Shown in pieces: positions 1 to 19,969 of a stretch of DNA of 19,969 nucleotides. The first letter of the stretch is position 1. Every line of letters begins with the position of its first letter. The notes under the pieces were generated by a model. It did not search any database and was not told the DNA's origin. It saw only the letters and a list, made by a program, of their open reading frames with translations. Made by a program: the position numbers and the translations under genes. The stretch is from the IMG/VR virus record IMGVR_UViG_2675903289_000008, one strand, 5' to 3'. The stretch comes from a virus. Lineage: Duplodnaviria > Heunggongvirae > Uroviricota > Caudoviricetes.

Positions 1-7
1 GATCTTT

Positions 8-247
8 ATGGCGCTGATGCGCAAAACCTTTGTCCCCCGCGAGGCCTTTGAAAAACTCTCCGACCGGGTTGAGCGGGTGGAGAGCCGGATTTCCGGCCTG
101 CCCACGCAGCAGGAGGTGAACAGACTCAATATCGAAATCACCACCCTGCGCGGTGAGCTTAAGGCCACCAATGCCACCCTGAAATCCGTCTCCCACCAGA
201 ACGAACTGCTGCTGGAGCAGGCTGTAAGGAAAAAACACAATGAGTGA
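8..247 (+). CDS. hypothetical small coiled-coil protein; may be 5'-truncated by the window edge
   Basis: 79-aa ORF rich in E/R/L/K with heptad-like pattern; its frame stays open back to position 2; stop overlaps next start (ATGAGTGA). Confidence 0.45.
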   Translation: MALMRKTFVPREAFEKLSDRVERVESRISGLPTQQEVNRLNIEITTLRGELKATNATLKSVSHQNELLLEQAVRKKHNE

Positions 248-530
248 TTTCATTACTGAAGATCAGCGTCTTGTCATTCTGCGGTCGCTGGCGGATTACA
301 ACGGCGAACTGGGCGAATCCGTGCTTCAGGACTGCCTGGATGATTACGGCCACCGCGTGTCCCGCGACACCGTTCACACCCACATTGCCTGGCTTGCTGA
401 GCAGGGACTGGTGCGTAAGCGCACGCTTGTTAACGGTTATTTCATCGCTGAACTGACCGGCCGGGGTCAGGATGTGGCGGAAGGTCGTGCCACTGTTCCG
501 GGTGTGAAGAAACCACGCGCAAGGGGGTAA
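240..530 (+). CDS. hypothetical protein, possibly winged-helix DNA-binding
   Basis: 96-aa ORF with enterobacterial-type codon usage, coupled to neighbours; helix-turn-helix-like stretch (VSRDTVHTHIAWLAEQGLVRKR) and basic C-terminus. Confidence 0.5.
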   Translation: MSDFITEDQRLVILRSLADYNGELGESVLQDCLDDYGHRVSRDTVHTHIAWLAEQGLVRKRTLVNGYFIAELTGRGQDVAEGRATVPGVKKPRARG

Positions 531-532
531 CG

Positions 533-1114
533 ATGGATAAGCCGACGCGTGGCCGTGTACGCAAGGTGGATTTGCTCCCCGACAGCATCCGTAAGCCGCT
601 GCTGGAAATGCTGCGTGAAAAACGCCTGACGCAGGTCCAGATCCGCGAGGAAATCAACCGTCTGATCCGTGAGGCAGGCCTGCCGGAAGAGCAGCAGCTT
701 TCACCGGCGGCCATCAGCCGGGAAGCCTCCCGTAATGAGCTGATTGCCCGTAATCTGCGTGATTTACGCGAGCAGACAAAAGCCATGATGGCCGAACTGG
801 GGGATAAGCCGACCGGTGAAACCACGGCACTGATTCTGGAGATGTCCCGTGCCCTGATGTACCGCCGTCTGCGTGCCGCCACCGAATCCCTGAACAGCGA
901 CAGCGATGTGGATATGCGCCTTATTAAGGACATCCTCCTGTCGGCACAGCGTGCGGAAAGTGCCGCCGAGCGCAGCATTAAGCGTGAAAAAGAAATCCGG
1001 GCCGCATTTGCTGAAGAGATGGCGAACGCCGTCACCGACGAGTTGCGCGGCGTGGATGGCATGAGCGAGCAGATAGAATTCCGTATCAGGCAGATGCTGC
1101 TTGGTAAGGCGTAG
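533..1114 (+). CDS. terminase small subunit (Mu gp27-like, DUF3486-type)
   Basis: 193-aa ORF directly upstream of the large terminase; N-terminal basic/HTH-like region, central coiled coil; AAGGGGG Shine-Dalgarno ahead of ATG 533. Confidence 0.7.
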   Translation: MDKPTRGRVRKVDLLPDSIRKPLLEMLREKRLTQVQIREEINRLIREAGLPEEQQLSPAAISREASRNELIARNLRDLREQTKAMMAELGDKPTGETTALILEMSRALMYRRLRAATESLNSDSDVDMRLIKDILLSAQRAESAAERSIKREKEIRAAFAEEMANAVTDELRGVDGMSEQIEFRIRQMLLGKA

Positions 1115-1124
1115 GAGGTGAATC

Positions 1125-1373
1125 GTGGTAACAGATAACCGCTCACTGATGAGTAGTGCTCATCAGAAGGCATTCAGTCTTGCAACACAGTTACCTCCTG
1201 AAACCATAAAAGCGTGTCGTGAGTTGACTGAACTCAGCATTGCCGGGGAAATATCCCTGGAACAACTGCATTCGCTGCTGGCAGGGGCTGTCACTGATGA
1301 GTTGAGTGGCGTGGACGTGATGACTGAAGAGCTTGAGTTCCGAATCAAAAGCATTCTGACAGGTAAAGCCTGA
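1125..1373 (+). CDS. small protein whose C-terminal ~30 aa copy the small-terminase C-terminal tail
   Basis: 82-aa ORF with GTG start 6 nt after AGGAGG (1113-1118); TGATG overlap with large terminase start. C-terminus AVTDELSGVDVMTEELEFRIKSILTGKA parallels small-terminase AVTDELRGVDGMSEQIEFRIRQMLLGKA. Confidence 0.55.
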   Translation: MVTDNRSLMSSAHQKAFSLATQLPPETIKACRELTELSIAGEISLEQLHSLLAGAVTDELSGVDVMTEELEFRIKSILTGKA

Positions 1374-3037
1374 TGAACAAAGCCAAAGAAAAGTCTCCTT
1401 CACTGATACAAATGACACCTCCCCGCAAAATTGATCTGTCCGGTGAAAAAGCCCTGCTGGGCGTGGATGTGCCGGACAGCCTTGATTTGCCCGGTGATAT
1501 GCCGGTGTTTCTGGATTATCAGGCCCGCTGGTTTGCAGATGAAAGTCAGGTCTGCATCGCGGAGAAATCCCGACGCACCGGGCTTACCTGGGCGGAAGCC
1601 GGGCGTAACGTCATTACCGCCGCAAAGCCTAAGCGTCGTGGTGGCCGTAATGTGTTTTATGTGGGGTCAAAACAGGAGATGGCGCTGGAATATATTTCTG
1701 CCTGCGCGCTGTTCTCCCGTGCCTTTAACCAGCTGGCAGATGCTGATGTGTATGAGCAGACATTCTGGGATCGGGATAAAAAAGAAGAAATTCTGACCTA
1801 CATGATCCGCTTTCCGAACAGTGGATTCAAAATTCAGGCATTGTCTTCCCGTCCGTCAAACCTGCGCGGTCTTCAGGGGGATGTGGTGATTGATGAAGCC
1901 GCGTTCCACGAGTCACTGGATGAGCTTCTCAAGGCGGCAATGGCGCTCACTATGTGGGGCGCACGCGTGCGCATTATTTCCACGCATAACGGCGTCGATA
2001 ATCTGTTTAATCAGTACATTCAGGAAGCCCGCGAGGGGCGCAAGGATTACAGCGTCCACCGCATAACCCTGGATGATGCCATTGCGGACGGGCTGTACCG
2101 TCGTATCTGTTACGTCACCGATCAGGAATGGTCACCGGAAAGCGAGCAGAAATGGCGTGATGATCTCTACAAAAACGCCCCGACCCGTGAGGATGCCGAC
2201 GAGGAATACGGCTGTATCCCGAAAAAATCCGGCGGTGCCTATATTCCTCACGCGCTTATTGAAATGGCGATGATTCGTGACATCCCGATTCTGACGTTTG
2301 AAGCCCCGGACGACTTCATCAGCCGTGCCGCATGGCTGCGTGAATCGGAAGTTTTAACCTGGTGTGAAGAACATTTAAAACCGCTTACAGAGAAATTAAA
2401 TCCCCGTTCCCGCTTCAGCTTCGGGGAAGACTTTGCCCGCACCGGTGACCTGTCCTGCTTTGTGCTGCTGGAAATCACCGAACTCCTGGCAAAGCGCGAG
2501 GTGTTTCGCGTGGAGCTGCGCAACCTGCCGTATGCCCAGCAGGAACAGGTGATGATGTACATCCTGACCCGCGTTCCGGCGCTGGTCGGTGCGGCGTTCG
2601 ACGCCACCGGTAACGGCGGCTATCTGGCAGAGGCCGCACTGCTGGCCTTTGGCCCGGACATCATCGACTGCGTGATGTTGTCGCCGAAGTGGTACGGCGA
2701 GTGGATGCCAAAACTGAAAGCCGAGTTTGAAGATCAGAATATCCTCGTCGCCCGCCATCAGACCACGCTTGATGATTTGCGCCATGTGAAGGTGGTGAAT
2801 GGTATCCCGCAAATCGACAAGGGGCGCACGAAGGACCAGAACGCAACGGCTGCGAACGCCCGCCGCCATGGTGATTTTGCCGTGGCACTCTGTATGGCAA
2901 ACCGGGCGTCATACATGGAGGGTTTCATCCTGGATGAATCAGCCTGTCAGGCGCTGCCGGAGCGGTCGCGGGCAATGGAGGGCGGTTATCGTGATGACGA
3001 TGAGGCATATCATGAATTTGATCGGGGGTGCTGGTAG
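1373..3037 (+). CDS. terminase large subunit (Mu gp28-like)
   Basis: 554-aa ORF; position after small terminase and before portal; acidic ATPase-like stretch (VVIDEAAF) and C-terminal nuclease-like region; coherent codon usage. Confidence 0.85.
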   Translation: MNKAKEKSPSLIQMTPPRKIDLSGEKALLGVDVPDSLDLPGDMPVFLDYQARWFADESQVCIAEKSRRTGLTWAEAGRNVITAAKPKRRGGRNVFYVGSKQEMALEYISACALFSRAFNQLADADVYEQTFWDRDKKEEILTYMIRFPNSGFKIQALSSRPSNLRGLQGDVVIDEAAFHESLDELLKAAMALTMWGARVRIISTHNGVDNLFNQYIQEAREGRKDYSVHRITLDDAIADGLYRRICYVTDQEWSPESEQKWRDDLYKNAPTREDADEEYGCIPKKSGGAYIPHALIEMAMIRDIPILTFEAPDDFISRAAWLRESEVLTWCEEHLKPLTEKLNPRSRFSFGEDFARTGDLSCFVLLEITELLAKREVFRVELRNLPYAQQEQVMMYILTRVPALVGAAFDATGNGGYLAEAALLAFGPDIIDCVMLSPKWYGEWMPKLKAEFEDQNILVARHQTTLDDLRHVKVVNGIPQIDKGRTKDQNATAANARRHGDFAVALCMANRASYMEGFILDESACQALPERSRAMEGGYRDDDEAYHEFDRGCW

Positions 3038-4626
3038 TGGGACGCATAATTGATCTTGACGGAAAACCTTTCTCCTTTGACCCGGAGATGCAAAGTACCG
3101 CGCTGGATATTCCGCAGATTGCCAGCCGTTATGTTGAGCATCCCGCCTCGGGTATCACCCCGAACCGGGCGGCGCAGTGCCTTCGCGGGGCTGAACGTGG
3201 CGATCTGATTGCCCAGTCCGATCTGGCGGCTGACATTGAAGAAAAGGACACCCACCTTTTTGCGGAGCTGGGCAAGCGACGTCTTGCCATTCAGGGGGTG
3301 CCATGGAGCATTGAGCCGCCACCGAACGCCAGCGCGAATGAGAAAAAGGACGCGGAAATGCTCGACGAATATCTGCATTCCGCAGACTGGTTTGATGCCA
3401 TGCTGTTTGACGCCACGGATGCCATCCTGAAGGGCTATTCCTGCATGGAAATTGAGCACGGGATGCTCGGTAAAATGCACATCATCCGCGCCATCCGCTG
3501 GCGTGACAGCGGGCATTTCTGCCTTAACCCGGATGATTTGAGCGAACTGCGGCTGCGTGACGGCAGCCATGCCGGGGTGGCGTTTCAGCCCTTTGGCTGG
3601 ATAGTGCATCAGTCGCGTTCACGCACCGGCTACGGTGGTGCGACGGGGCTTGTCAGAACGCTTATCTGGCCGTTCATTTTCAAAAACTATTCCGTGCGCG
3701 ATCTGGCGGAATTTCTGGAGGTGTACGGCCTGCCAATGAAGGTCGGGAAATACCCGTCCGGGGCAACACCGGAGCAGAAAAGTGCCCTGATGCGGGCGGT
3801 GATGGATATCGGGCGACGTACAGGCGGGATCATCCCGGCCGGGATGTCGCTGGAGTTTCAGGCGGCAGCGAACGGTCAGGCCGATCCGTTTGAAACCATG
3901 ATTTCGTGGGGTGAGCGTTCCATCTCCAAAGCAATACTCGGCGGCACGCTGACCACGGAAGCCGGAGACAAAGGCGCGCGCTCGCTGGGTGAGGTGCATA
4001 ACGAGGTGCGCCGGGAAATCAGGGATTCTGATTTACGCCAGCTGGCTGCAACCCTGAACCGCGATCTGGTGTATCCGCTGTATGCCCTGAACACCGCCCA
4101 CGCCATTGATATCCGTCGCCTGCCGCGTATCTGTTTCCAGACCAAAGAACCGGGGGATATCACCAAAATAGCCAGTGCGGTGATGCAACTCAGTGCGGGG
4201 ATGGATATTCCTGATCCCTGGGTACGGGAGCAGACCGGTATTCCACAGCCCACGCCCGGTGAAGCCATATTCCGTGTCCGTCAGAGCAGTAATGAACCGG
4301 CCATGCCTGACAGGGAAACGCTACCGGAAAAACAGGAAAAGACAGAACAGACGGCGCTTTCAGCCCGACTGCCGGAAGCGAAAAACACGCCGCGTGATGA
4401 ACTGGACGACATGGGGGACGCGGTGCCTGCCCGCCGCTTACAGGAGGCCATCGATCCGGTGCTGGAGCCGGTCATTGATGTCATCAGAACGCGGGGGCTG
4501 GCGGAGGCACTGGCAGACCTGCCTGCCCTTTACCGTGAAATGGATGATTCCCGCCTGATGACGCTGCTCAGTGATGCCATGTTTGCTGCGGAAATGAAGG
4601 GGATGCTGGATGGCTCAGGGGATTGA
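3037..4626 (+). CDS. portal protein (Mu gp29/H-like, DUF935-type)
   Basis: About 530-aa ORF after the terminase. GTG at 3037 sits 9 nt after a GGGGG run and overlaps the terminase stop (TAGTG); the ORF track start at GTG 3028 is the alternative. Confidence 0.8.
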   Translation: MGRIIDLDGKPFSFDPEMQSTALDIPQIASRYVEHPASGITPNRAAQCLRGAERGDLIAQSDLAADIEEKDTHLFAELGKRRLAIQGVPWSIEPPPNASANEKKDAEMLDEYLHSADWFDAMLFDATDAILKGYSCMEIEHGMLGKMHIIRAIRWRDSGHFCLNPDDLSELRLRDGSHAGVAFQPFGWIVHQSRSRTGYGGATGLVRTLIWPFIFKNYSVRDLAEFLEVYGLPMKVGKYPSGATPEQKSALMRAVMDIGRRTGGIIPAGMSLEFQAAANGQADPFETMISWGERSISKAILGGTLTTEAGDKGARSLGEVHNEVRREIRDSDLRQLAATLNRDLVYPLYALNTAHAIDIRRLPRICFQTKEPGDITKIASAVMQLSAGMDIPDPWVREQTGIPQPTPGEAIFRVRQSSNEPAMPDRETLPEKQEKTEQTALSARLPEAKNTPRDELDDMGDAVPARRLQEAIDPVLEPVIDVIRTRGLAEALADLPALYREMDDSRLMTLLSDAMFAAEMKGMLDGSGD

Positions 4627-5941
4627 TTTAGGTTATGCCGCCACGCTTCCCTCAAAAGAGACGGTGGCATACTTCCGCGCCAAAGGGGCGCATATCAGCT
4701 GGAACTGGTTCGAAACAGACGCGGATGTTCATGCCCGCTCATTCACGGCAGCAAAAACGGCACGGCTGGATGTGGTAACCACATTACAGGCCGAAGTGCA
4801 GCGGGCCATTGATGAGGGGATTTCACAGAAAGAATTTATCCGCACACTGACGCCACGCCTGCAAAAGCTGGGATGGTGGGGAAAGCAGATTGTGGTGGAC
4901 AGCGACGGTAACGCGGAAGAAGTGCAGCTGGGCAGTCCCCGTCGTCTGGCGCTGATTTACAACGTGAACACCCGTGTGGCTTACAATGCCGGGCGTTACA
5001 CGCAGATGATGAACAACACGGACACGCATCCGTTCTGGCAGTATGTGGCGGTCATGGACAGCCGTACCCGCCCGTCGCATTCCGCCCTTAACGGTCTGGT
5101 ATTCCGCTATGACGATCCGTTCTGGAAAACACACTACCCACCTAATGGCTGGAACTGCCGCTGCCGTGTGCGGCCATTGTCTCAGGCTCGTCTGGATGCA
5201 ATGGGGTTATCCGTTTCATCCGGTGAGGATCATCTCTCCACCCGCAATGTTGAGGCTGGCGTGGATAAACAGACCGGAGAAGTCAGAGAAATGCCGGTGA
5301 CCACATATTCAGATGGCACCAGAACCATGACACCGGATGTGGGCTGGTCATATAACCCCGGCTCGGCAGCGTTCGGCACAGACCAGGCGCTGATCCGCAA
5401 ACTGATCGAGGTGAAAAGCCCGGCGTTACGGGAAATGGTGGTTCAGGAGATGAACAACAGCCCGGAGCGGCAGCTGGCGTTCCGCATCTGGGCAAAAAAC
5501 ATCATGCAGACCCGGCGAGGTGGTAACGATATCCGCACGCTGGGCTTTATGACTGAAAGCATTGCGCAGGCAGTGGAAAGCCGGACGGGAACGCCACCGG
5601 CCCGCCTGCTGGCGATGAGCGGTAAAAATGTGCTCCATGCAGACAGTGTGAAACATCAGAATGACGGCATCGCCCTGATGCCAGAGGACTTCGGGCGCTT
5701 ACCGGCAATGCTGGCAAAGCCAAAAGCGGTGCTGTGGGACAAACGGCACAAAAATCTGATGTATATCGTGGAAAATAAGGATGGCAGTGTGCAGATTGCC
5801 GTTAATGCACCGTACAGTCTGAAACGTCAGCCCGACAAACTGGATGTGATTGTGAATGCTTACCGGGTTATCAATATGGATAAGCTGAAATCGGATATCC
5901 GGGGCGGAATGCTTGAGGTGCTGGAAGGACAAATTGATTAA
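4610..5941 (+). CDS. MuF-like head morphogenesis protein (Mu gp30/F, SPP1 gp7 family)
   Basis: 443-aa ORF with the MuF-type motif region (DSRTRPSHSALNGLVFRYDDPFW...PPNGWNCRCRVRP); follows the portal as in Mu. Confidence 0.85.
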   Translation: MAQGIDLGYAATLPSKETVAYFRAKGAHISWNWFETDADVHARSFTAAKTARLDVVTTLQAEVQRAIDEGISQKEFIRTLTPRLQKLGWWGKQIVVDSDGNAEEVQLGSPRRLALIYNVNTRVAYNAGRYTQMMNNTDTHPFWQYVAVMDSRTRPSHSALNGLVFRYDDPFWKTHYPPNGWNCRCRVRPLSQARLDAMGLSVSSGEDHLSTRNVEAGVDKQTGEVREMPVTTYSDGTRTMTPDVGWSYNPGSAAFGTDQALIRKLIEVKSPALREMVVQEMNNSPERQLAFRIWAKNIMQTRRGGNDIRTLGFMTESIAQAVESRTGTPPARLLAMSGKNVLHADSVKHQNDGIALMPEDFGRLPAMLAKPKAVLWDKRHKNLMYIVENKDGSVQIAVNAPYSLKRQPDKLDVIVNAYRVINMDKLKSDIRGGMLEVLEGQID

Positions 5942-6062: not shown

Positions 6063-6542
6063 ATGTCATCCATTGATGCCGCTGTCGTTGTTGACGTTAC
6101 GCGTCTCCAGCGGGTGTTTGCCCGGCTTCAGTTTGTGGGCGGCGGAAAAGACCTGGCCCGCAGTGTGGCGGAGAGTCTNNNNNNNNNNNNNNNNTCAGAA
6201 ATGGCGTTTGAACAGGAAAAAGAGCCGGACGGCGAACGCTGGCATGACTGGTCAGATCCTTACCGCAAGTGGCGTACCCGTAAGGGATACACGCCCGGCA
6301 AAATCCTGACACTGAACGGCGATCTGGCCCGCCGCCTGACCACGGATTATGGCGATACCTGGGCGCTGATTGGATCAAATGAACCTTATGCGGCCATTCA
6401 TCAGTGGGGTGGCCTGCCTGGTATGCCACCGGGACCGGCGGCCATTGGCGCACGTCCGTATATGGGCTTTGATCAGGTGGCAGAACAGGAGATCATGGAC
6501 GAAATCAGAAAACGCTTTAAAAAGGCCACAGAAACGCCGTAA
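6063..6542 (+). CDS. virion morphogenesis protein (Mu G-like)
   Basis: 159-aa ORF with GGAGG Shine-Dalgarno ahead of ATG 6063; sits between MuF and protease/scaffold as in Mu; reads in frame across the 16-nt N-run 6179-6194. Confidence 0.7.
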   Translation: MSSIDAAVVVDVTRLQRVFARLQFVGGGKDLARSVAESXXXXXXSEMAFEQEKEPDGERWHDWSDPYRKWRTRKGYTPGKILTLNGDLARRLTTDYGDTWALIGSNEPYAAIHQWGGLPGMPPGPAAIGARPYMGFDQVAEQEIMDEIRKRFKKATETP

Positions 6543-6719: not shown

Positions 6720-7922
6720 ATGAAGACGAAAAACACGCCCAAACTTGCTTATGCCATTCTGAATGCCATCAGCCTGTCCGCAGACGGGGACGGTGACTGG
6801 TGTCAGATCATGCCAGCCGGTCGGGTAAAGGCCCGTGACGGTCGCCCGGAAAAACCGGCGGAAGGCTGGCTGATTAACCATGCGGCCGTTGAGCGCATGG
6901 TATCCCGGGTTGTGGCGCTCAATCAGCCGGTAAAAATTGACTACAACCACCAGACCCTGATTAAGGGGCATCCGGCACCGGCTGCCGGTTTTGTCATGGC
7001 CTCACCGGAAAACTTCCGCTTCAGTGAAGAGCGGGGTTTTGAAGTGCGTCCGGACTGGAACCCTCCGGCCATTGAACACCTGCGCAATAACGAATTTCCC
7101 TGGTTTTCCCCGGTGATTGGTTATGACGAAATCACCGGTGAACCTGTTGAGCTTCGGATGCTGGCTATTACCGGTGACCCCGGTCTGACTGGCATGAATC
7201 CTGTCGCCGCACTGTCGGCGGATGACCTTTATAACGCCTTAAACCCTCCTTTAAAGGACACCTCCATGAATGAGCAATTACGCCAGTTGCTGACGGCGCT
7301 CGGTCTGACCGTGGCCGACGGTGACGAATTTACACCGGAACTGGGCACGGCGGCGCTGTCTGCCCTTACCGGGATCAAAACCCGTGCGGATGCGCACGAC
7401 ACCCTGAAAACGCAGGTTGCCAGCCTGTCGGCAGAGCTGGAAACCGCAAAAGGCACACCAACTGGCGGCACTATTGATCTGACGAAATACGTGCCCGTTG
7501 AGACGTATAACGNNNNNNNNNNNNNNNNNNNNNNNNNNNNNNNNNNNNNNNNNNNNNNNNNNNNNNNNNNNNNNNNNNNNNNNNNNNNNNNNNNNNNNNN
7601 NNNNNNNNNNNNNNNNNNNNNNNNNNNNNNNNNNNNNNNNNNNNNNNNNNNNNNNNNNNNNNNNNNNNNNNNNNNNNNNNNNNNNNNNNNNNNNNNNNNN
7701 NNNNNNNNNNNNNNNNNNNNNNNNNNNNNNNNNNNNNNNNNNNNNNNNNNNNNNNNNNNNNNNNNNNNNNNNNNNNNNNNNNNNNNNNNNNNNNNNNNNN
7801 NNNNNNNNNNNNNNNNNNNNNNNNNNNNNNNNNNNNNNNNGTCGGCTGAAGATATCGCCGCCGCCCATCTGCTGGGTAAAACCGAAGCCGAGTTCCTGAA
7901 AATGAAAGAGGAAATGCAATAA
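6720..7922 (+). CDS. head maturation protease/scaffold (Mu I-like)
   Basis: 400-aa ORF directly upstream of the major head gene (TAATG overlap); N-terminal protease-like region, A/L/T-rich helical C-terminal half; contains N-run 7513-7840. Confidence 0.8.
   Translation: MKTKNTPKLAYAILNAISLSADGDGDWCQIMPAGRVKARDGRPEKPAEGWLINHAAVERMVSRVVALNQPVKIDYNHQTLIKGHPAPAAGFVMASPENFRFSEERGFEVRPDWNPPAIEHLRNNEFPWFSPVIGYDEITGEPVELRMLAITGDPGLTGMNPVAALSADDLYNALNPPLKDTSMNEQLRQLLTALGLTVADGDEFTPELGTAALSALTGIKTRADAHDTLKTQVASLSAELETAKGTPTGGTIDLTKYVPVETYNXXXXXXXXXXXXXXXXXXXXXXXXXXXXXXXXXXXXXXXXXXXXXXXXXXXXXXXXXXXXXXXXXXXXXXXXXXXXXXXXXXXXXXXXXXXXXXXXXXXXXXXXXXXXXXSAEDIAAAHLLGKTEAEFLKMKEEMQ
7266..7922 (+). CDS. candidate nested scaffold protein (Mu Z-like) from an in-frame internal start
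   Basis: In-frame ATG at 7266 preceded by AAGGA; downstream sequence (MNEQLRQLLTALGL...) is helical and scaffold-like; Mu makes Z from inside I in the same frame. Confidence 0.35.
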   Translation: MNEQLRQLLTALGLTVADGDEFTPELGTAALSALTGIKTRADAHDTLKTQVASLSAELETAKGTPTGGTIDLTKYVPVETYNXXXXXXXXXXXXXXXXXXXXXXXXXXXXXXXXXXXXXXXXXXXXXXXXXXXXXXXXXXXXXXXXXXXXXXXXXXXXXXXXXXXXXXXXXXXXXXXXXXXXXXXXXXXXXXSAEDIAAAHLLGKTEAEFLKMKEEMQ

Positions 7923-10245: not shown

Positions 10246-10683
10246 ATGACAACCATTTTTATCAAACCCNNNNNNNNNNNNNNNNNNNNNNNNNNNNNNN
10301 NNNNNNNNNNNNNNNNNNNNNNNNNNNNNNNNNNNNNNNNNNNNNNNNNNNNNNNNNNNNNNNNNNNNNNNNNNNNNNNNNNNNNNNNNNNNNNNNNNNN
10401 NNNNNNNNNNNNNNNNNNNNNNNNNNNNNNNNNNNNNNNNNNNNNNNNNNNNNNNNNNNNNNNNNNNNNNNNNNNNNNNNNNNNNNNNNNNNNNNNNNNN
10501 NNNNNNNNNNNNNNNNNNNNNNNNNNNNNNNNNNNNNNNNNNNNNNNNNNNNNNNNNNNNNNNNNNNNNNNNNNNNNNNNNNNNNNNNNNNNNNNNNNNN
10601 NNNNNNNNNNNNNNNNNNNNNNNNNNNNNNNNNNNNNNNNNNNNNNNNNNNNNNNNNNNNNNNNNNNNNNNNNNNNNNNNNNA
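10246..10683 (+). CDS. unresolved: start of an ORF running into an N-run (small Mu gp38-like protein and/or sheath N-terminus)
   Basis: ATG 10246 with GAGGA Shine-Dalgarno, 8 codons visible (MTTIFIKP) before the N-run 10270-10682. Confidence 0.3.
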
Positions 10684-12065: not shown

Positions 12066-12459
12066 ATGAGCGGAAAACAGCATCAGGGCACGGCCACCAT
12101 CCGTGTGAACGGACAGGAGTACGCCACCCTTGAGGGAGCCACGTTCTCCCCGTCCGGCTTTGAGCGTGAAGTGGTGAAAGGCGCGAAAGTCTATGGCTAT
12201 CGTGAGAAACCCCGTGAGGCGACGCTGGACTGTAAATTTCCGGCTGGCGGAGAAGGTTCACCGGCTGNNNNNNNNNNNNNNNNNNNCACCGGCTGCCGAT
12301 GAAATCAACACCTGGACTGCGGTCACGATTGAGTTCGTGGCCGATACCGGTGAAGTCCATATGATGACGAAGGCCTGGAGCAGTGAACCGGCCTCGCTTG
12401 ACGGTGGCGGTGATATCTCCGCGAAGTTCGCCAGCGCCACCAGTACCCGTGTCCAGTAA
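12066..12459 (+). CDS. tail tube protein (Mu M-like), reading frame broken at 12268-12286
   Basis: N-terminal 67 codons in frame 0 and C-terminal about 57 codons in frame 1 are both protein-like; removing 28 nt (N-run plus the second caccggctg copy) restores one ORF of about 121 aa. Confidence 0.65.
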
Positions 12460-12953: not shown

Positions 12954-13077
12954 AGAAGCCGCAATTGTGCTGGGGATGGTGACAAAAAGCGGCCCGGAGT
13001 GGGCGCTTAACCTCCCCTTATCGCAGCTTTACCGGCACTGCCGACAGACCGAAAAAATTCTCAGAACGAAGCAGTAA
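12883..13077 (+). CDS. frameshift extension ORF of the tail assembly chaperone (long form)
   Basis: Frame 1 is open from 12883 to the stop at 13077, overlaps the frame-0 chaperone by 71 nt, has no start codon or Shine-Dalgarno of its own, and ends 3 nt before the tape-measure ATG. Confidence 0.5.
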   Translation: MIPRWQESWSLNGGDQMQCRDQIEEAAIVLGMVTKSGPEWALNLPLSQLYRHCRQTEKILRTKQ

Positions 13078-13080
13078 CCC

Positions 13081-15353
13081 ATGGCAAAAAACCTGAAAGC
13101 CTCCCTGATTGTCGATTTACTCGGCAATATTTCCGCCAAATCCCGCCAGTGGTCACAGGAGCTGGGGGCATTCTCCCGTTCCGGCAGGACGGGGCTGGGT
13201 GGTCTTGGAAATGCAGCACGCCGGGCCGGTCAGGAAACAGAGCTTGTTGGCTCCCGTATGCAGCGAACGCTTGCCGGTGTTCGTGGCAGTATCCGCACGG
13301 TAACGTCAGATTTTGACCGCCTGCAGGGCAGCATTACCGGCACCATCGGGCGGATAAGCAACNNNNNCCTTTACGGGATGCTGGCGGGAGGGGCTGCGGT
13401 CTACGGTTTTAATAAAGCCTTTATCCGCCCGGCCGCAGAGATGGAGAACTATATTCTGCGTCTCAACGCCANNNNNNNNNNNNNNNNNNNNNNNNNNNNN
13501 NNNNNNNNNNNNNNNNNNNNNNNNNNNNNNNNNNNNNNNNNNNNNNNNNNNNNNNNNNNNNNNNNNNNNNNNNNNNNNNNNNNNNNNNNNNNNNNNNNNN
13601 NNNNNNNNNNNNNNNNNNNNNNNNNNNNNNNNNNNNNNNNNNNNNNNNNNNNNNNNNNNNNNNNNNNNNNNNNNNNNNNNNNNNNNNNNNNNNNNNNNNN
13701 NNNNNNNNNNNNNNNNNNNNNNNNNNNNNNNNNNNNNNNNNNNNNNNNNNNNNNNNNNNNNNNNNNNNNNNNNNNNNNNNNNNNNNNNNNNNNNNNNNNN
13801 NNNNNNNNNNNNNNNNNNNNNNNNNNNNNNNNNNNNNNNNNNNNNNNNNNNNNNNNNNNNNNNNNNNNNNNNNNNNNNNNNNNNNNNNNNNNNNNNNNNN
13901 NNNNNNNNNNNNNNNNNNNNNNNNNNNNNNNNNNNNNNNNNNNNNNNNNNNNNNNNNNNNNNNNNNNNNNNNNNNNNNNNNNNNNNNNNNNNNNNNNNNN
14001 NNNNNNNNNNNNNNNNNNNNNNNNNNNNNNNNNNNNNNNNNNNNNNNNNNNNNNNNNNNNNNNNNNNNNNNNNNNNNNNNNNNNNNNNNNNNNNNNNNNN
14101 NNNNNNNNNNNNNNNNNNNNNNNNNNNNNNNNNNNNNNNNNNNNNNNNNNNNNNNNNNNNNNNNNNNNNNNNNNNNNNNNNNNNNNNNNNNNNNNNNNNN
14201 NNNNNNNNNNNNNNNTGGCCACACAGACGGCCTCAGCACTGAATCAGGGATTTGAGTATGCCAGAGATGCTGCGACCGGCTTTTACCGGGCCATTCAGAA
14301 AGTCAGGGAAACGCTTCAGGCACTGCGCGACGCCGGTTATGGCGATGCGCTGGATCGTATTGGTCAGGGTGCGCAGACCGCCGCAAAGTACCTGATGTAT
14401 ATGTATCTCGCCTCCCGTGCGCTGAAGGTGCTCAGGTTTGCAGGGACGGGGGCATTACGTCTCGGCGCAACCCCCTTACGCTATGGCATGGCGATGACCT
14501 CCGTGCTGACGTCGCCCTTCCGCAAACCGCAGACCACTGTACCGGGAACGCAGCCCGGACGCGCTGGCCGGTTCCTGAATTTCCTTACCGGGGTAAATCC
14601 GGCTGCCGTTCAGCCCGTGCTGGTCACCAACTGGCCTGCGGGTGGCCTGGCCTCAGGTGGCGGGGATGTGGTGGTCAGCGGTGACGGCAAAACCGTGCGC
14701 GGCCGTAAAAAACGCGGCCCCGGACGTGGACGGGGTGTCACGACCGTCGTGACTGCCGGTGAGCAACTGGCGGAGAGTGCCGGTAAACAGGGCTTCTTCG
14801 GTCGTATGATGAGCCGTGCCGGTGGTCTGCTAACGGCGGCCGGAAACCGCATGGGGCTGGGGCGTTTTGCCGGGCTGTTCCGTGGTGCCGGTCGGCTGGG
14901 TGGTGGTGCCCTGTGGGCCGGTGCCATGGCGGCTCCTGTACTGCTGGACAGCAGCGCCAGTGCAGCCGATAAAGCCGGTGCCGTGGGTTCTCTTGCCGGA
15001 AGTATCGCCGGTGNNNNNNNNNNNNNNNNNNNNNNNNNNNNNNNNNNNNNNNNNNNNNNNNNNNNNNNNNNNNNNNNGCGCGGGGGGCGGCTGCCGGTCC
15101 GGTCGGGGTTGCCATTGGTTCCACGGTGGGCAGCTATCTCGGTGATTATCTGGGGGGCTGGCTGACGCAGGCCTGGCAGAAACTGCGTGGCAGCAGTGAC
15201 GAAAACGGCGGACAGGCCACCGCGAAAACCGCCGCACGGGTGGAGCTTGTGGCCCCTGAAGGCTGGCGGGCGCGCAGTATTGATGTGGATGATACCGCAC
15301 AGCATGGCCTGGATGTGAACGTCTGGAACGGAGGGAACTATGGCCTCTACTGA
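13081..15353 (+). CDS. tail tape measure protein; frame discontinuity inside N-run 15014-15077
   Basis: Long Gly/Ala-rich ORF after the chaperones. After the mask the protein-like continuation (ARGAAAGPVGVAIGSTVGSYLGDYLGGWLTQAW...) is in frame 0 and ends at 15353, overlapping the next start; the ORF track's frame-1 end at 15165 is an artefact. Confidence 0.75.
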
Positions 15354-16584: not shown

Positions 16585-16881
16585 NNNNNNNNNNNNNNNN
16601 NNNNNNNNNNNNNNNNNNNNNNNNNNNNNNNNNNNNNNNNNNNNNNNNNNNNNNNNNNNNNNNNNNNNNNNNNNNNNNNNNNNNNNNNNNNNNNNNNNNN
16701 NNNNNNNNNNNNNNNNNNNNNNNNNNNNNNNNNNNNNNNNNNNNNNNNNNNNNNNNNNNNNNNNNNNNNNNNNNNNNNNNNNNNNNNNNNNNNNNNNNNN
16801 NNNNNNNNNNNNNNNNNNNNNNNNNNNNNNNNNNNNNNNNNNNNNNNNNNNNNNNNNNNNNNNNNNNNNNNNNNNNNNNNN

Positions 16882-17836
16882 GGTCATCAGTGGCTGGCTG
16901 GATCAGGTCAGTCNNNNNNNNNNNNNNNNNNNNNNNNNNNNNNNNNNNNNNNNNNNNNNNNNNNNNNNNNNNNNNNNNNNNNNNNNNNNNNNNNNNNNNN
17001 NNNNNNNNNNNNNNNNNNNNNNNNNNNNNNNNNNNNNNNNNNNNNNNNNNNNNNNNNNNNNNNNNNNNNNNNNNNNNNNNNNNNNNNNNNNNNNNNNNNN
17101 NNNNNNNNNNNNNNNNNNNNNNNNNNNNNNNNNNNNNNNNNNNNNNNNNNNNNNNNNNNNNNNNNNNNNNNNNNNNNNNNNNNNNNNNNNNNGCTGACCC
17201 GTGCTGCCCGGCATCGCGGGGTGCTGGTGACCAGTAATGCTGACGGCGATCTGGTGTTCACCCAGGCAGGAAGCCAGCAGACGGACAGACTGGTGCTGGG
17301 AGATAACCTGCTTGATGCCGATTACAACACGGACTGGCGAGGACGATACAGCGAATACCGTGTCCGGGGACACGGGCGCGGTGGTGGCAAACGGGGAGAC
17401 AGCGAATCCGCCGCCCGTCTGGCAGCACCTGTGGGCGTCATCAGTGATGAGCAGATCGGCCGCTACCGGCCGAAAATCATCCTCGCCGATCAACAGACAG
17501 ACATCACCGGTGCACGGCAGCGTGCCCTGCGTGAAATGCGCCGTGCGATTGCCCGTTCAGAACGGTTTTCTGCCACCGTGCGTGGCTGGTTCCGGGATGA
17601 TGGCCGGTTATGGGATGTCAATCTGCTGACCGGTGTTTCAGCCCTGCGTTTCGGTATAGAACAGACTGAACTGCTGGTCTGTCAGGTGGAGTTTTTACTT
17701 GATGAGNNNNNNNNNNNNCTTGATGAGCATAACGGGGAAGTCACCCGGCTGGTACTGGCACCGCGTGACGGCTTTATCGTTCCGGCAGAGCCGGACAGTA
17801 AGGGCCGGGGTGGTTCCGGTGACGATGTTGATGCCT
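16882..17836 (+). CDS. baseplate hub protein (Mu P/gp44-like, P2 gpD-like); both ends masked
   Basis: Visible segment 17193-17836 resembles the C-terminal part of late-control-D-type tail proteins; contains a 21-nt in-frame direct repeat around N-run 17707-17718. Confidence 0.55.
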
Positions 17837-18231
17837 NNNNNNNNNNNNNNNNNNNNNNNNNNNNNNNNNNNNNNNNNNNNNNNNNNNNNNNNNNNNNNNN
17901 NNNNNNNNNNNNNNNNNNNNNNNNNNNNNNNNNNNNNNNNNNNNNNNNNNNNNNNNNNNNNNNNNNNNNNNNNNNNNNNNNNNNNNNNNNNNNNNNNNNN
18001 NNNNNNNNNNNNNNNNNNNNNNNNNNNNNNNNNNNNNNNNNNNNNNNNNNNNNNNNNNNNNNNNNNNNNNNNNNNNNNNNNNNNNNNNNNNNNNNNNNNN
18101 NNNNNNNNNNNNNNNNNNNNNNNNNNNNNNNNNNNNNNNNNNNNNNNNNNNNNNNNNNNNNNNNNNNNNNNNNNNNNNNNNNNNNNNNNNNNNNNNNNNN
18201 NNNNNNNNNNNNNNNNNNNNNNNNNNNNNNN

Positions 18232-18986: not shown

Positions 18987-19969
18987 TGCCTTATCAGCCT
19001 TTACCGCTGGCACAGTTAATCACGCAGACACAGCAGGATATCAGCCAGCGCCTGCCCGGCTCGCAGCCGGGTGTGAATGAAACCACCCTGAATGCCATTG
19101 CTTACGCTCAGGCAGGGTTATCTGCTCAGGAGCATGAGCATCTGGCCTGGATTGCGCGTCAGATCATCCCGACCGAAGCCGATGAAGCCGAACTGCTGAA
19201 ACACTGTGCATTCTGGGGCGTCATGCGTAAGCCTGCCTCTCGGGGGGACGGGCCGGTTCAGCTGATGCTGACCACGGATGCGGGGATCAAGGAAGGTGTG
19301 CTTCTCCAGCGAAGTGATGGCGTGGTTTACCGTATCACCACCTCCCTGACCGGTAAGGCCGGTACGCTGAATGTCAGTGTGGAAGCCGAAAGTGCCGGTC
19401 GTGCGGGGAATGCCCCGGCAGGGACAAAACTGACATTTATCACACCGCAGGCGGGGATCAACCAGACGGCCACGGTGACCGGAACGGGGATCACCGGTGG
19501 TGCGGATGTGGAAACCGTGCCGGAGCTGCTTTCCCGTCTGGTTTTCCGGGTGCAGAATCCACCGTCCGGCGGCACGCAGTATGATTTTGAACGCTGGGCG
19601 CGTGAAGTGCCGGGCGTGACGCGGGCATGGTGCCGCCCGGAATGGCCGCAGGCGGGCAGCGTGGGGGTAACGTTTGTTCAGGATAATAACCCGGACATTT
19701 TCCCCGGTGACGGTGATGTTCAGCGGGTGGCGGATTATNNNNNNNNNNNNNNNNNNNNNNNNNNNNNNNNNNNNNNNNNNNNNNNNNNNNNNNNNNNNNN
19801 NNNNNNNNNNNNNNNNNNNNNNNNNNNNNNNNNNNNNNNNNNNNNNNNNNNNNNNNNNNNNNNNNNNNNNNNNNNNNNNNNNNNNNNNNNNNNNNNNNNN
19901 NNNNNNNNNNNNNNNNNNNNNNNNNNNNNNNNNNNNNNNNNNNNNNNNNNNNTCTGGTTCTGCCGTCGT
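18986..19969 (+). CDS. baseplate J-like protein (Mu gp47-like; P2 gpJ / T4 gp6-like), 3'-partial
   Basis: ATG 18986 overlaps the preceding stop (TAATG) after AAGGGGGAG; frame open to the window end, so absent from the ORF track; sequence (…YDFERWAREVPGVTRAW…) fits baseplate J proteins. Confidence 0.8.
   Translation, partial: MPYQPLPLAQLITQTQQDISQRLPGSQPGVNETTLNAIAYAQAGLSAQEHEHLAWIARQIIPTEADEAELLKHCAFWGVMRKPASRGDGPVQLMLTTDAGIKEGVLLQRSDGVVYRITTSLTGKAGTLNVSVEAESAGRAGNAPAGTKLTFITPQAGINQTATVTGTGITGGADVETVPELLSRLVFRVQNPPSGGTQYDFERWAREVPGVTRAWCRPEWPQAGSVGVTFVQDNNPDIFPGDGDVQRVADYXXXXXXXXXXXXXXXXXXXXXXXXXXXXXXXXXXXXXXXXXXXXXXXXXXXXXXXXXXXXXXXXXXXXXXXXWFCRR

Follow-up and report, generated by a model that had tools for sequence, protein, structure and literature searches.

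The closest described parallels to the gene analysed here are phage morons and mosaic recombination joints (the Hendrix and Juhala concept), translationally coupled late genes of phages (UGAUG, AUGA), and small proteins that are encoded beside the terminase genes or act on their products. In the Pseudomonas Mu-like phage JBD26, the slot between the small terminase (TerS) and large terminase (TerL) genes holds atab (83 amino acids, plus strand, directly after TerS in the late operon) and tab (83 amino acids, minus strand, with its own promoter) (PMC10884400). Rpp of the E. coli phage-inducible chromosomal islands (PICIs) (PMC6739421) and the small-terminase blockers of PICIs and Staphylococcus aureus pathogenicity islands (SaPIs) (PMC10884400) are encoded by satellites and act on the TerS of the helper. 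In lambda and P22, the C-terminal region of TerS binds the N-terminus of TerL (review PMC9611059). Here we describe ORF82, an open reading frame (ORF) of 82 codons between TerS and TerL in the IMG/VR virus record IMGVR_UViG_2675903289_000008, a stretch of 19,969 nucleotides which is called the window throughout and whose left end belongs to the late region of a Mu-like E. coli prophage (99.9% identity to the FORC_069 chromosome). Our results indicated that ORF82 is very probably a chimera, whichever way the events ran, and led us to lean towards the reading that it is an accessory ORF, formed by fusion, in the hypervariable slot between TerS and TerL, where it would relay translational coupling to TerL.

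ORF82 starts 10 nucleotides (nt) past the stop of gp27, the TerS gene, and ends on the start of TerL. It is annotated as a gene in FORC_069 and was matched over its full length (E 7.6e-57, positions 1-82 of 82) by phrog_30922, a family of uncharacterised function. Its C-terminus resembles that of the resident TerS, as the initial annotation had noticed: BLASTP aligned residues 163-193 of gp27 with residues 52-82 of ORF82 at 20 identities and 26 positives over 31 positions (E 1e-12). The shared segment is not a generic low-complexity helix, since it represents a family-specific TerS tail kept across genera; the motif ELRGxDG[MI]SE[QE]LExRI[KR]xxLLGKA terminates the gp27 homologues of Mu and of Salmonella, Vibrio and Pseudomonas phages, which elsewhere share just ~32-57% identity with the resident protein. 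The ORF82 tail (tail2) departs from the true TerS tails examined, which come from four genera, at four of their invariant positions, with the substitutions R to S, G to V, S to T and L to T.

Apart from the resemblance of the tail, ORF82 failed to group with gp27, and it is not a small terminase. No Pfam family matched it at E <= 1, PF11985 included, and BLASTP and multiple alignment found no credible similarity between ORF82 and gp27 residues 1-160. ORF82 is like the gp27 proteins of PF11985 in that its last 28-31 residues copy the family tail and in that it has the TGATG overlap of sister-prophage gp27, and it is unlike them in lacking gp27 residues 1-160, which by analogy with other small terminases would be the DNA-binding and oligomerisation part. 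The possibility that ORF82 is the C-terminal fragment of a divergent gp27 was rejected owing to the absence of similarity upstream of the tail and of any Pfam match. Exhaustive HMMER searches of 1.84 billion representatives found no credible relative of the N-terminal domain (N-domain) beyond the E. coli family and the protein P0012, and no gp27 containing the N-domain was present among these representatives or in a word-indexed search of 5.8 billion.

The origin of ORF82 was approached by comparing prophages that differ from the end of gp27 through about TerL codon 15-20. Because their flanks are 95-100% identical, the junction patch alone distinguishes four types. In the A-type (an O157 Sp18-like prophage, ~205 complete E. 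coli genomes and two Shiga toxin (Stx) phage records), TGATG links the gp27 tail straight to TerL; a 259-bp gap falls exactly at the position of ORF82, and alignment places its tail against tail2 and its junction against that of ORF82 with TerL. The B-type, to which the window belongs together with 25 complete genomes and 8 contigs each from IMG/VR and from metagenomes, has the order gp27, Shine-Dalgarno (SD) sequence, ORF82, TGATG and TerL. The D-type, found in six read-assembly or metagenome contigs, contains a gp27 identical to that of the window, the same SD, an ORF of 67 amino acids (ORF67, P0012), a 120-nt spacer and a C-type TerL. The C-type, from strain CI5, has the same gp27 protein as several B-type loci, the same SD behind it, a 9-codon mini-ORF that keeps the first four codons of the ORF and whose stop overlaps the TerL ATG, and a TerL with a different N-terminus; it is a deletion derivative of the D-type.

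These junctions contain relatives of both parts of ORF82. The tail-less ORF67 and ORF82 share a homologous N-terminal part, residues 1-55 of ORF82 (52.5% identity, E 2.6e-16); the remainder of ORF67 is unrelated sequence with no TerS tail. The ORF82 tail is nearer to the A-type tail (66/84 nt, 21/28 amino acids) than to the resident tail (tail1; 57/84 nt, 19/28 amino acids), and what follows it is A-like too, both the TGATG junction and the N-terminus of TerL (MNKAKEKSPSL vs MNNAEELSPLL). In situ tandem duplication was ruled out, given that tail2 is closer to the other allele and carries its junction and that the N-domain has a tail-less homologue. The simplest history would be the joining of a D-like left arm and an A-like right arm at an Ala-x-Ala microhomology. 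Residues 1-55 would come from an orphan slot gene resembling ORF67 and residues 55-82 from another gp27 allele, whose 3' end would have been taken over along with its native TGATG overlap and the first ~15 TerL codons; recombination between diverged sister phages would have produced the fusion. The patch is also AT-richer than its surroundings, with a GC content of 0.49 in both parts of ORF82 and 0.36 in the first 45 nt of TerL, compared with 0.56-0.59 in the flanks; GC at third codon positions was 0.44 in the N-domain vs 0.63-0.69 in the flanks.

The two copies of the tail, 259 nt apart, are identical at 61 of 93 nt (66%). Their differences fall 7/6/19 on the three codon positions, so that 19 of the 32 are third-position changes, as the initial annotation had seen, and the proportion of synonymous differences (pS) was 0.79 (saturated) with a proportion of nonsynonymous differences (pN) of 0.21. 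The further claim of that annotation, that an ancient duplication has been maintained by selection acting on the protein, was not supported in that form, as the ORF is a fusion whose tail appears to derive from another gp27 allele and whose third-position divergence was evidently inherited. True TerS tails are saturated as well (tail1 vs the A-type tail, pS 0.56 and pN 0.11; A-type tail vs a Vibrio tail, pS 0.71 and pN 0.09). Because true TerS alleles share this saturated pS and low pN, the third-position divergence would have been inherited and not gained under selection on ORF82, and the two tails would have diverged as TerS tails in separate phages before the capture. The synonymous divergence between tail1 and tail2 thus evidently predates the fusion and says nothing about selection on ORF82.

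The translation signals around ORF82 were strong, in agreement with the initial annotation. AGGAGG at 1113-1118 lies 6 nt ahead of the GTG at 1125, with a calculated anti-SD duplex of -11.5 kcal/mol, compared with -11.8 kcal/mol for gp27, and the TGATG junction lies at 1371-1375. The anti-SD duplex of TerL was weak where its ATG overlaps an upstream stop, at -3.8 (B-type), -3.7 (A-type) and -2.2 (C-type) kcal/mol, and was stronger where there is no overlap, at -6.4 (D-type) and -6.3 (Mu gp28) kcal/mol. In all 26 genomic loci examined an SD was retained (as AGGAGG, AAGAGG or AGGGGG), the frame was open from a GTG or ATG start, and the TGATG was intact. The frame had 82 codons in 25 of the 26 loci and 80 in one, owing to an in-frame 6-nt deletion in locus L035, the only indel among them; the other length variant, a 9-nt deletion in database entry P0002, is likewise in frame. 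Fusion of gp27 with ORF82 by readthrough of the gp27 TAG was rejected on inspection of the sequence, which meets a TAA after 7 codons, and so was a frameshift fusion, as no X XXY YYZ slippery site lies upstream of the TGATG. Across the whole window no Rfam family attained its gathering score, and scans gave no promoter-like site on either strand of 1-3200 and no terminator-like site in 900-1490.

These signals suggest how the junction may work. The AGGAGGTGA overlapping the gp27 stop would drive efficient translation of ORF82, and ribosomes ending on the UGAUG would be passed to TerL, which itself has nearly no SD, so that the coupling of gp27 to TerL, otherwise broken by an inserted gene, may be restored via ORF82. 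We infer that, in this family, TerL is translationally coupled to whichever ORF precedes it, in the B-type ORF82. The locus is like other translationally coupled late genes in that the ORF82 stop overlaps the TerL start, the SD upstream is near-perfect and TerL lacks one, and the gp27/TerL pair of relatives and the 9-codon mini-ORF/TerL pair of the deletion variant share the arrangement; it is unlike them in that the upstream partner of this putative coupling is a chimeric accessory ORF and not a functional partner subunit.

Polymorphism was evaluated on 13 distinct ORF82 haplotypes with up to ~12% nucleotide divergence. Segregating changes in ORF82 numbered 34 nonsynonymous and 18 synonymous, which gives a ratio of 0.59 (test of neutrality, p = 0.054); at the same loci the ratio was 0.02 in gp27 and 0.10 in TerL. 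The pairwise ratio (omega) within the ORF82 family was 0.18-0.62. Selection would therefore seem to keep the frame, the start signals and the overlap, with the amino acid sequence weakly constrained. Such a combination of preserved frame and signals with a nearly free amino acid sequence would be expected if TerL translation is coupled to the ORF in front. The product is predicted to be a small protein of four helices whose TerS-like tail is degenerate, and docking of the tail on TerL would be secondary. The AlphaFold2 (AF2) model had a mean predicted local distance difference test score (pLDDT) of 70.5, with helices at residues 5-22, 25-39 and 45-60 and a low-confidence loop-helix tail. Foldseek against PDB found no structural neighbour of the ORF82 model at E <= 0.001, and sequence searches of PDB returned no match for gp27 or ORF82.

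Several results weigh against this account of ORF82. Omega was below 1, with a ratio of 0.4 in the tail alone (p = 0.08), and residues 17-55 are invariant in most alleles, which leaves room for a function of the protein itself. The database also holds a frameshifted entry (P0010), entries shortened at the N-terminus to 49 amino acids (P0008/P0009) and a chimeric one (P0011), perhaps artefacts of assembly or annotation. As to the history, the D-type junction is known solely from the six metagenome or read-assembly contigs, its specific segment was not found in complete E. coli genomes, and the searches found no gp27 with a tail identical to tail2. The B-type could also be ancestral and the A-type derived from it by recombination between tail1 and tail2; the first half of the A-type tail matches tail1 at 41/45 nt and tail2 at 34/45, and the second half matches tail2 at 37-38/48 nt and tail1 at 33/48.

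The copied tail raises the possibility that ORF82 docks on the N-terminal region of TerL, either as a competitor or regulator or as an adaptor cognate to an A-like TerL N-terminus. The binding of the TerS C-terminus to the TerL N-terminus in lambda and P22 (PMC9611059) offers a precedent by analogy, 20 of the 31 tail residues are kept, AF2 predicted a flexible helix-loop-helix tail, and the strong SD together with the putative coupling would imply a level of ORF82 comparable to that of TerL. The gp27 of the B-type has a C/D-type tail end, and its A-like TerL N-terminus (MN.A.E.SP.L) is physically linked to the A-like tail2. However, tail2 has changed at four invariant positions (R, G, S, L), polymorphism in the tail was not significantly constrained (0.4, p = 0.08), and allele P0006 places a Pro inside the predicted tail helix. 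ORF82 is also missing from most sister phages, its homologue ORF67 has no tail, and a search with a tail profile, which returned just ~30 candidates, all short proteins, gave gp27 fragments and the ORF82 family only, and among these no independent small protein had captured a TerS tail. We consider docking unlikely on these grounds. The satellite-encoded terminase hijackers are the nearest precedent for a decoy or competitor, being small proteins that disturb the TerS/TerL partnership; unlike ORF82, they are encoded by satellites and not in a late operon, and they bind TerS rather than mimic its tail, and no homology of ORF82 to them was detected in the family scans run. A gene against competing phages or host defence, in which the N-domain, shared with ORF67, would be active in neutralising a factor of the host or of a prophage during lytic growth and the tail an incidental by-product of recombination, would make ORF82 a positional analogue of anti-Tab. 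ORF82 and ORF67 match atab in position and strand and nearly in size (82 and 83 amino acids for ORF82 and Atab), and ORF82 is likewise optional between near-identical phages; the moron-like presence and absence, the foreign composition of the patch and the fast amino acid evolution typical of arms-race genes also fit. The D-type spacer in addition has a minus-strand ORF of 39 amino acids with an SD, which overlaps the 3' end of ORF67. Against this, ORF82 and ORF67 showed no similarity to Atab or Tab in all-against-all BLASTP (E <= 10), ORF82 had no PADLOC match, the B-type has no minus-strand partner gene, and no promoter-like site for a partner was found in the window or the D-type locus. Atab itself carries no TerS tail. 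ORF82 is not a member of the tab/anti-tab system, and a role in defence or competition of this kind appears rather improbable.

ORF82 might instead have no role, as a neutral recombination scar whose frame is open because both parental pieces were recently coding and which will decay. The ratio of 0.59 does not differ significantly from neutrality (p = 0.054), none of the 52 changes makes a stop (by our own estimate a chance of ~0.1 under random substitution), the frameshifted, shortened and chimeric entries P0010, P0008/P0009 and P0011 exist, and most relatives do without ORF82. It is difficult to reconcile with a scar, however, that the SD, start, open frame and TGATG are all kept in 26 of 26 loci and through 13 haplotypes as divergent as ~12%, that both length variants observed are in frame, and that TerL, having no SD of its own, must get its ribosomes from upstream. 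B-type elements at several sites in single genomes (three in JE86-ST05) also suggest transposition by elements that are presumably viable. A scar thus seems quite improbable. In comparison with phage morons, ORF82 is alike in its presence or absence amid genomes 95-100% identical and in a GC content below that of the flanks, and unlike in having no promoter or terminator of its own, in being fused to a piece of an essential gene and in being apparently wired into TerL translation. An accessory fusion ORF that relays coupling is the reading we keep for the remainder of the text.

Two classes of tail were observed among gp27 homologues, ...RGxDGMSEQLExRIRxxLLGKA and ...AGL[ST]xxxVxxxKxxLLGI[AV] (compared at window 1373-1500 and in loci L008 and L015-L019). 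Tails of the LLGKA class go with the TerL N-terminal motif PRKIDL..LGVDVP..PVFLxYQxRWF, and phages of the AGLS...LGIA class are without it. This co-occurrence would speak for docking of the ORF82 tail as well, but it comprises 9 phages in two clades and is inseparable from phylogeny. The pair of tail class and TerL motif may mark a TerS-TerL interface shared across Mu-like phages as a whole. That ORF82 supplies a tail matching this TerL after mixed recombination, and acts as an adaptor, an assembly regulator or a decoy against sister phages, is conceivable and in our judgement improbable.

The distribution of ORF82 is narrow. It is present in 25 of the ~230 E. coli genomes with this prophage family and absent from ~205, as well as from Mu, SfMu and D108. 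The initial annotation knew of no such gene in Mu, and in Mu the gp27 stop and the gp28 start are indeed 7 nt apart. Absence from related phages, which by that annotation would speak against its view, was the rule and not universal, in view of the 25 carriers. Of the initial view of ORF82 as a whole, the specific copy of the tail, the strong translation signals and the absence from Mu stood, and a duplication under selection on the protein was not supported. TerS adjoins or overlaps TerL in Vibrio, Pasteurella and Pseudomonas relatives and abuts it in Mu. A scan of one genome per species found no relatives of ORF82, and scans of IMG/VR and metagenomes found solely variants at least 94% identical to it, so that the family was seen in E. 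coli only. The best explanation is that ORF82 is lineage-restricted and dispensable. The ORF82 segment was also present at multiple chromosome sites, three in NZ_AP022815.1 (JE86-ST05), two in NZ_AP022811.1 (JE86-ST02) and two in NZ_CP166879.1 (strain 48), which suggests that Mu-like elements carrying ORF82 are still transposing or repeatedly lysogenising.

ORF82 would thus represent a cleanly reconstructable gene birth by fusion, in which an orphan accessory gene gained the 3' end of an essential neighbour together with a putative translational link to TerL. Because four junction structures occur in prophages otherwise 95-100% identical, the TerS/TerL boundary of enterobacterial Mu-like phages appears to be an exchange hot spot, and it is the same slot as that of tab/anti-tab in Pseudomonas; the boundary is, by this evidence, a recurrent accessory-gene site. 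If the tail binds TerL, the locus would offer a natural way into the gp27-TerL interface, which is unstudied, and into the packaging specificity of transposable phages. If ORF82 is a true mimic, it would be the first phage-encoded mimic of a TerS tail, and the last ~13 residues of gp27 with the first ~15-20 of TerL would form a specificity patch that exchanges rapidly. Should the tail not bind, the locus would be a caution that conserved residues whose third positions are saturated can come down from diverged alleles and do not have to be a sign of selection on the new gene.

Table 1. Coordinates of the features around the TerS/TerL junction of the window.
Feature	Position	Strand	Remarks
gp26-like winged-helix gene	240-530
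gp27-family small terminase (TerS), 193 amino acids	533-1114	+	PF11985 E 3.1e-33, 116 bits; phrog_426 E 8.6e-55
tail1, resident TerS C-terminal tail, residues 163-193	1019-1111	+	AVTDEL... motif from 1028
Hypervariable TerS/TerL junction patch	1087-1421		four alternative structures (A, B, C, D)
Shine-Dalgarno AGGAGGTGA	1113-1121	+	overlaps gp27 stop TAG (1112-1114)
ORF82, 82 amino acids, GTG start	1125-1373	+	phrog_30922; hypothetical protein WP_000255659.1 of the Prokaryotic Genome Annotation Pipeline (PGAP)
ORF82 N-domain, residues 1-54	1125-1286	+	homologous to tail-less ORF67 of the D-type prophage
tail2, putatively captured TerS tail, ORF82 residues 55-82	1287-1370	+	19/28 amino acids identical to tail1
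TGATG stop/start overlap, ORF82/TerL	1371-1375	+	TerL ATG at 1373
Large terminase (TerL), 554 amino acids	1373-3037	+	phrog_2 E 6.3e-43

The first ~15 codons of TerL (1373-1417) belong to the variable patch. TerL was recognised by PHROG profiles alone, with no Pfam-A match at E <= 1, and PGAP labels it 'hypothetical protein'. A Mu-type portal gene follows, and the TerL stop overlaps its PGAP-annotated start (TAGTG, window 3035-3039); stop/start overlaps thus chain gp27 (in sister phages), ORF82, TerL and the portal gene. In the window 2,786 bases are masked, as 12 runs of N (6179-6194, 7513-7840, 10270-10682, 12268-12286, 13363-13367, 13472-14215, 15014-15077, 16585-16881, 16914-17192, 17707-17718, 17837-18231 and 19739-19952), and the region 1-3200 is free of N. 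Dips of GC in the composition profile (e.g. 0.27 at 13001-14000) are artefacts of the masking, and ORFs across N runs are unreliable.

Some further observations were made in the slot itself. No conserved minus-strand ORF was found in the window. The 39-amino-acid ORF (MMLQTQLELLERYLSG...) of the D-type spacer lies on the minus strand of locus L009 (5181-5300) behind an AGGAG site, and its layout recalls tab/anti-tab; no promoter was predicted for it and PADLOC gave no convincing match (best E 0.038, 10.9 bits). Codons 6-12 of ORF67 in the same locus (5016-5038) contain a near-perfect 21-bp palindrome, GGGCGCTGATTATCAGCGCCC (10-nt arms, one central base), which by scan score is terminator-like on the minus strand and corresponds to about 1139-1161 of the window. 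A similar palindrome occurs in the M18-type ORF82 alleles (L004); it is degenerate in the window, and codons 1-16, where it falls, vary more than any other part of the ORF. In the Shewanella phage vB_SspM_MuM16-2 (L019 2585-2731), the TerS/TerL slot has a different occupant, a largely hydrophobic hypothetical ORF of 48 amino acids, unrelated to ORF82, which overlaps both the TerS stop and the TerL start.

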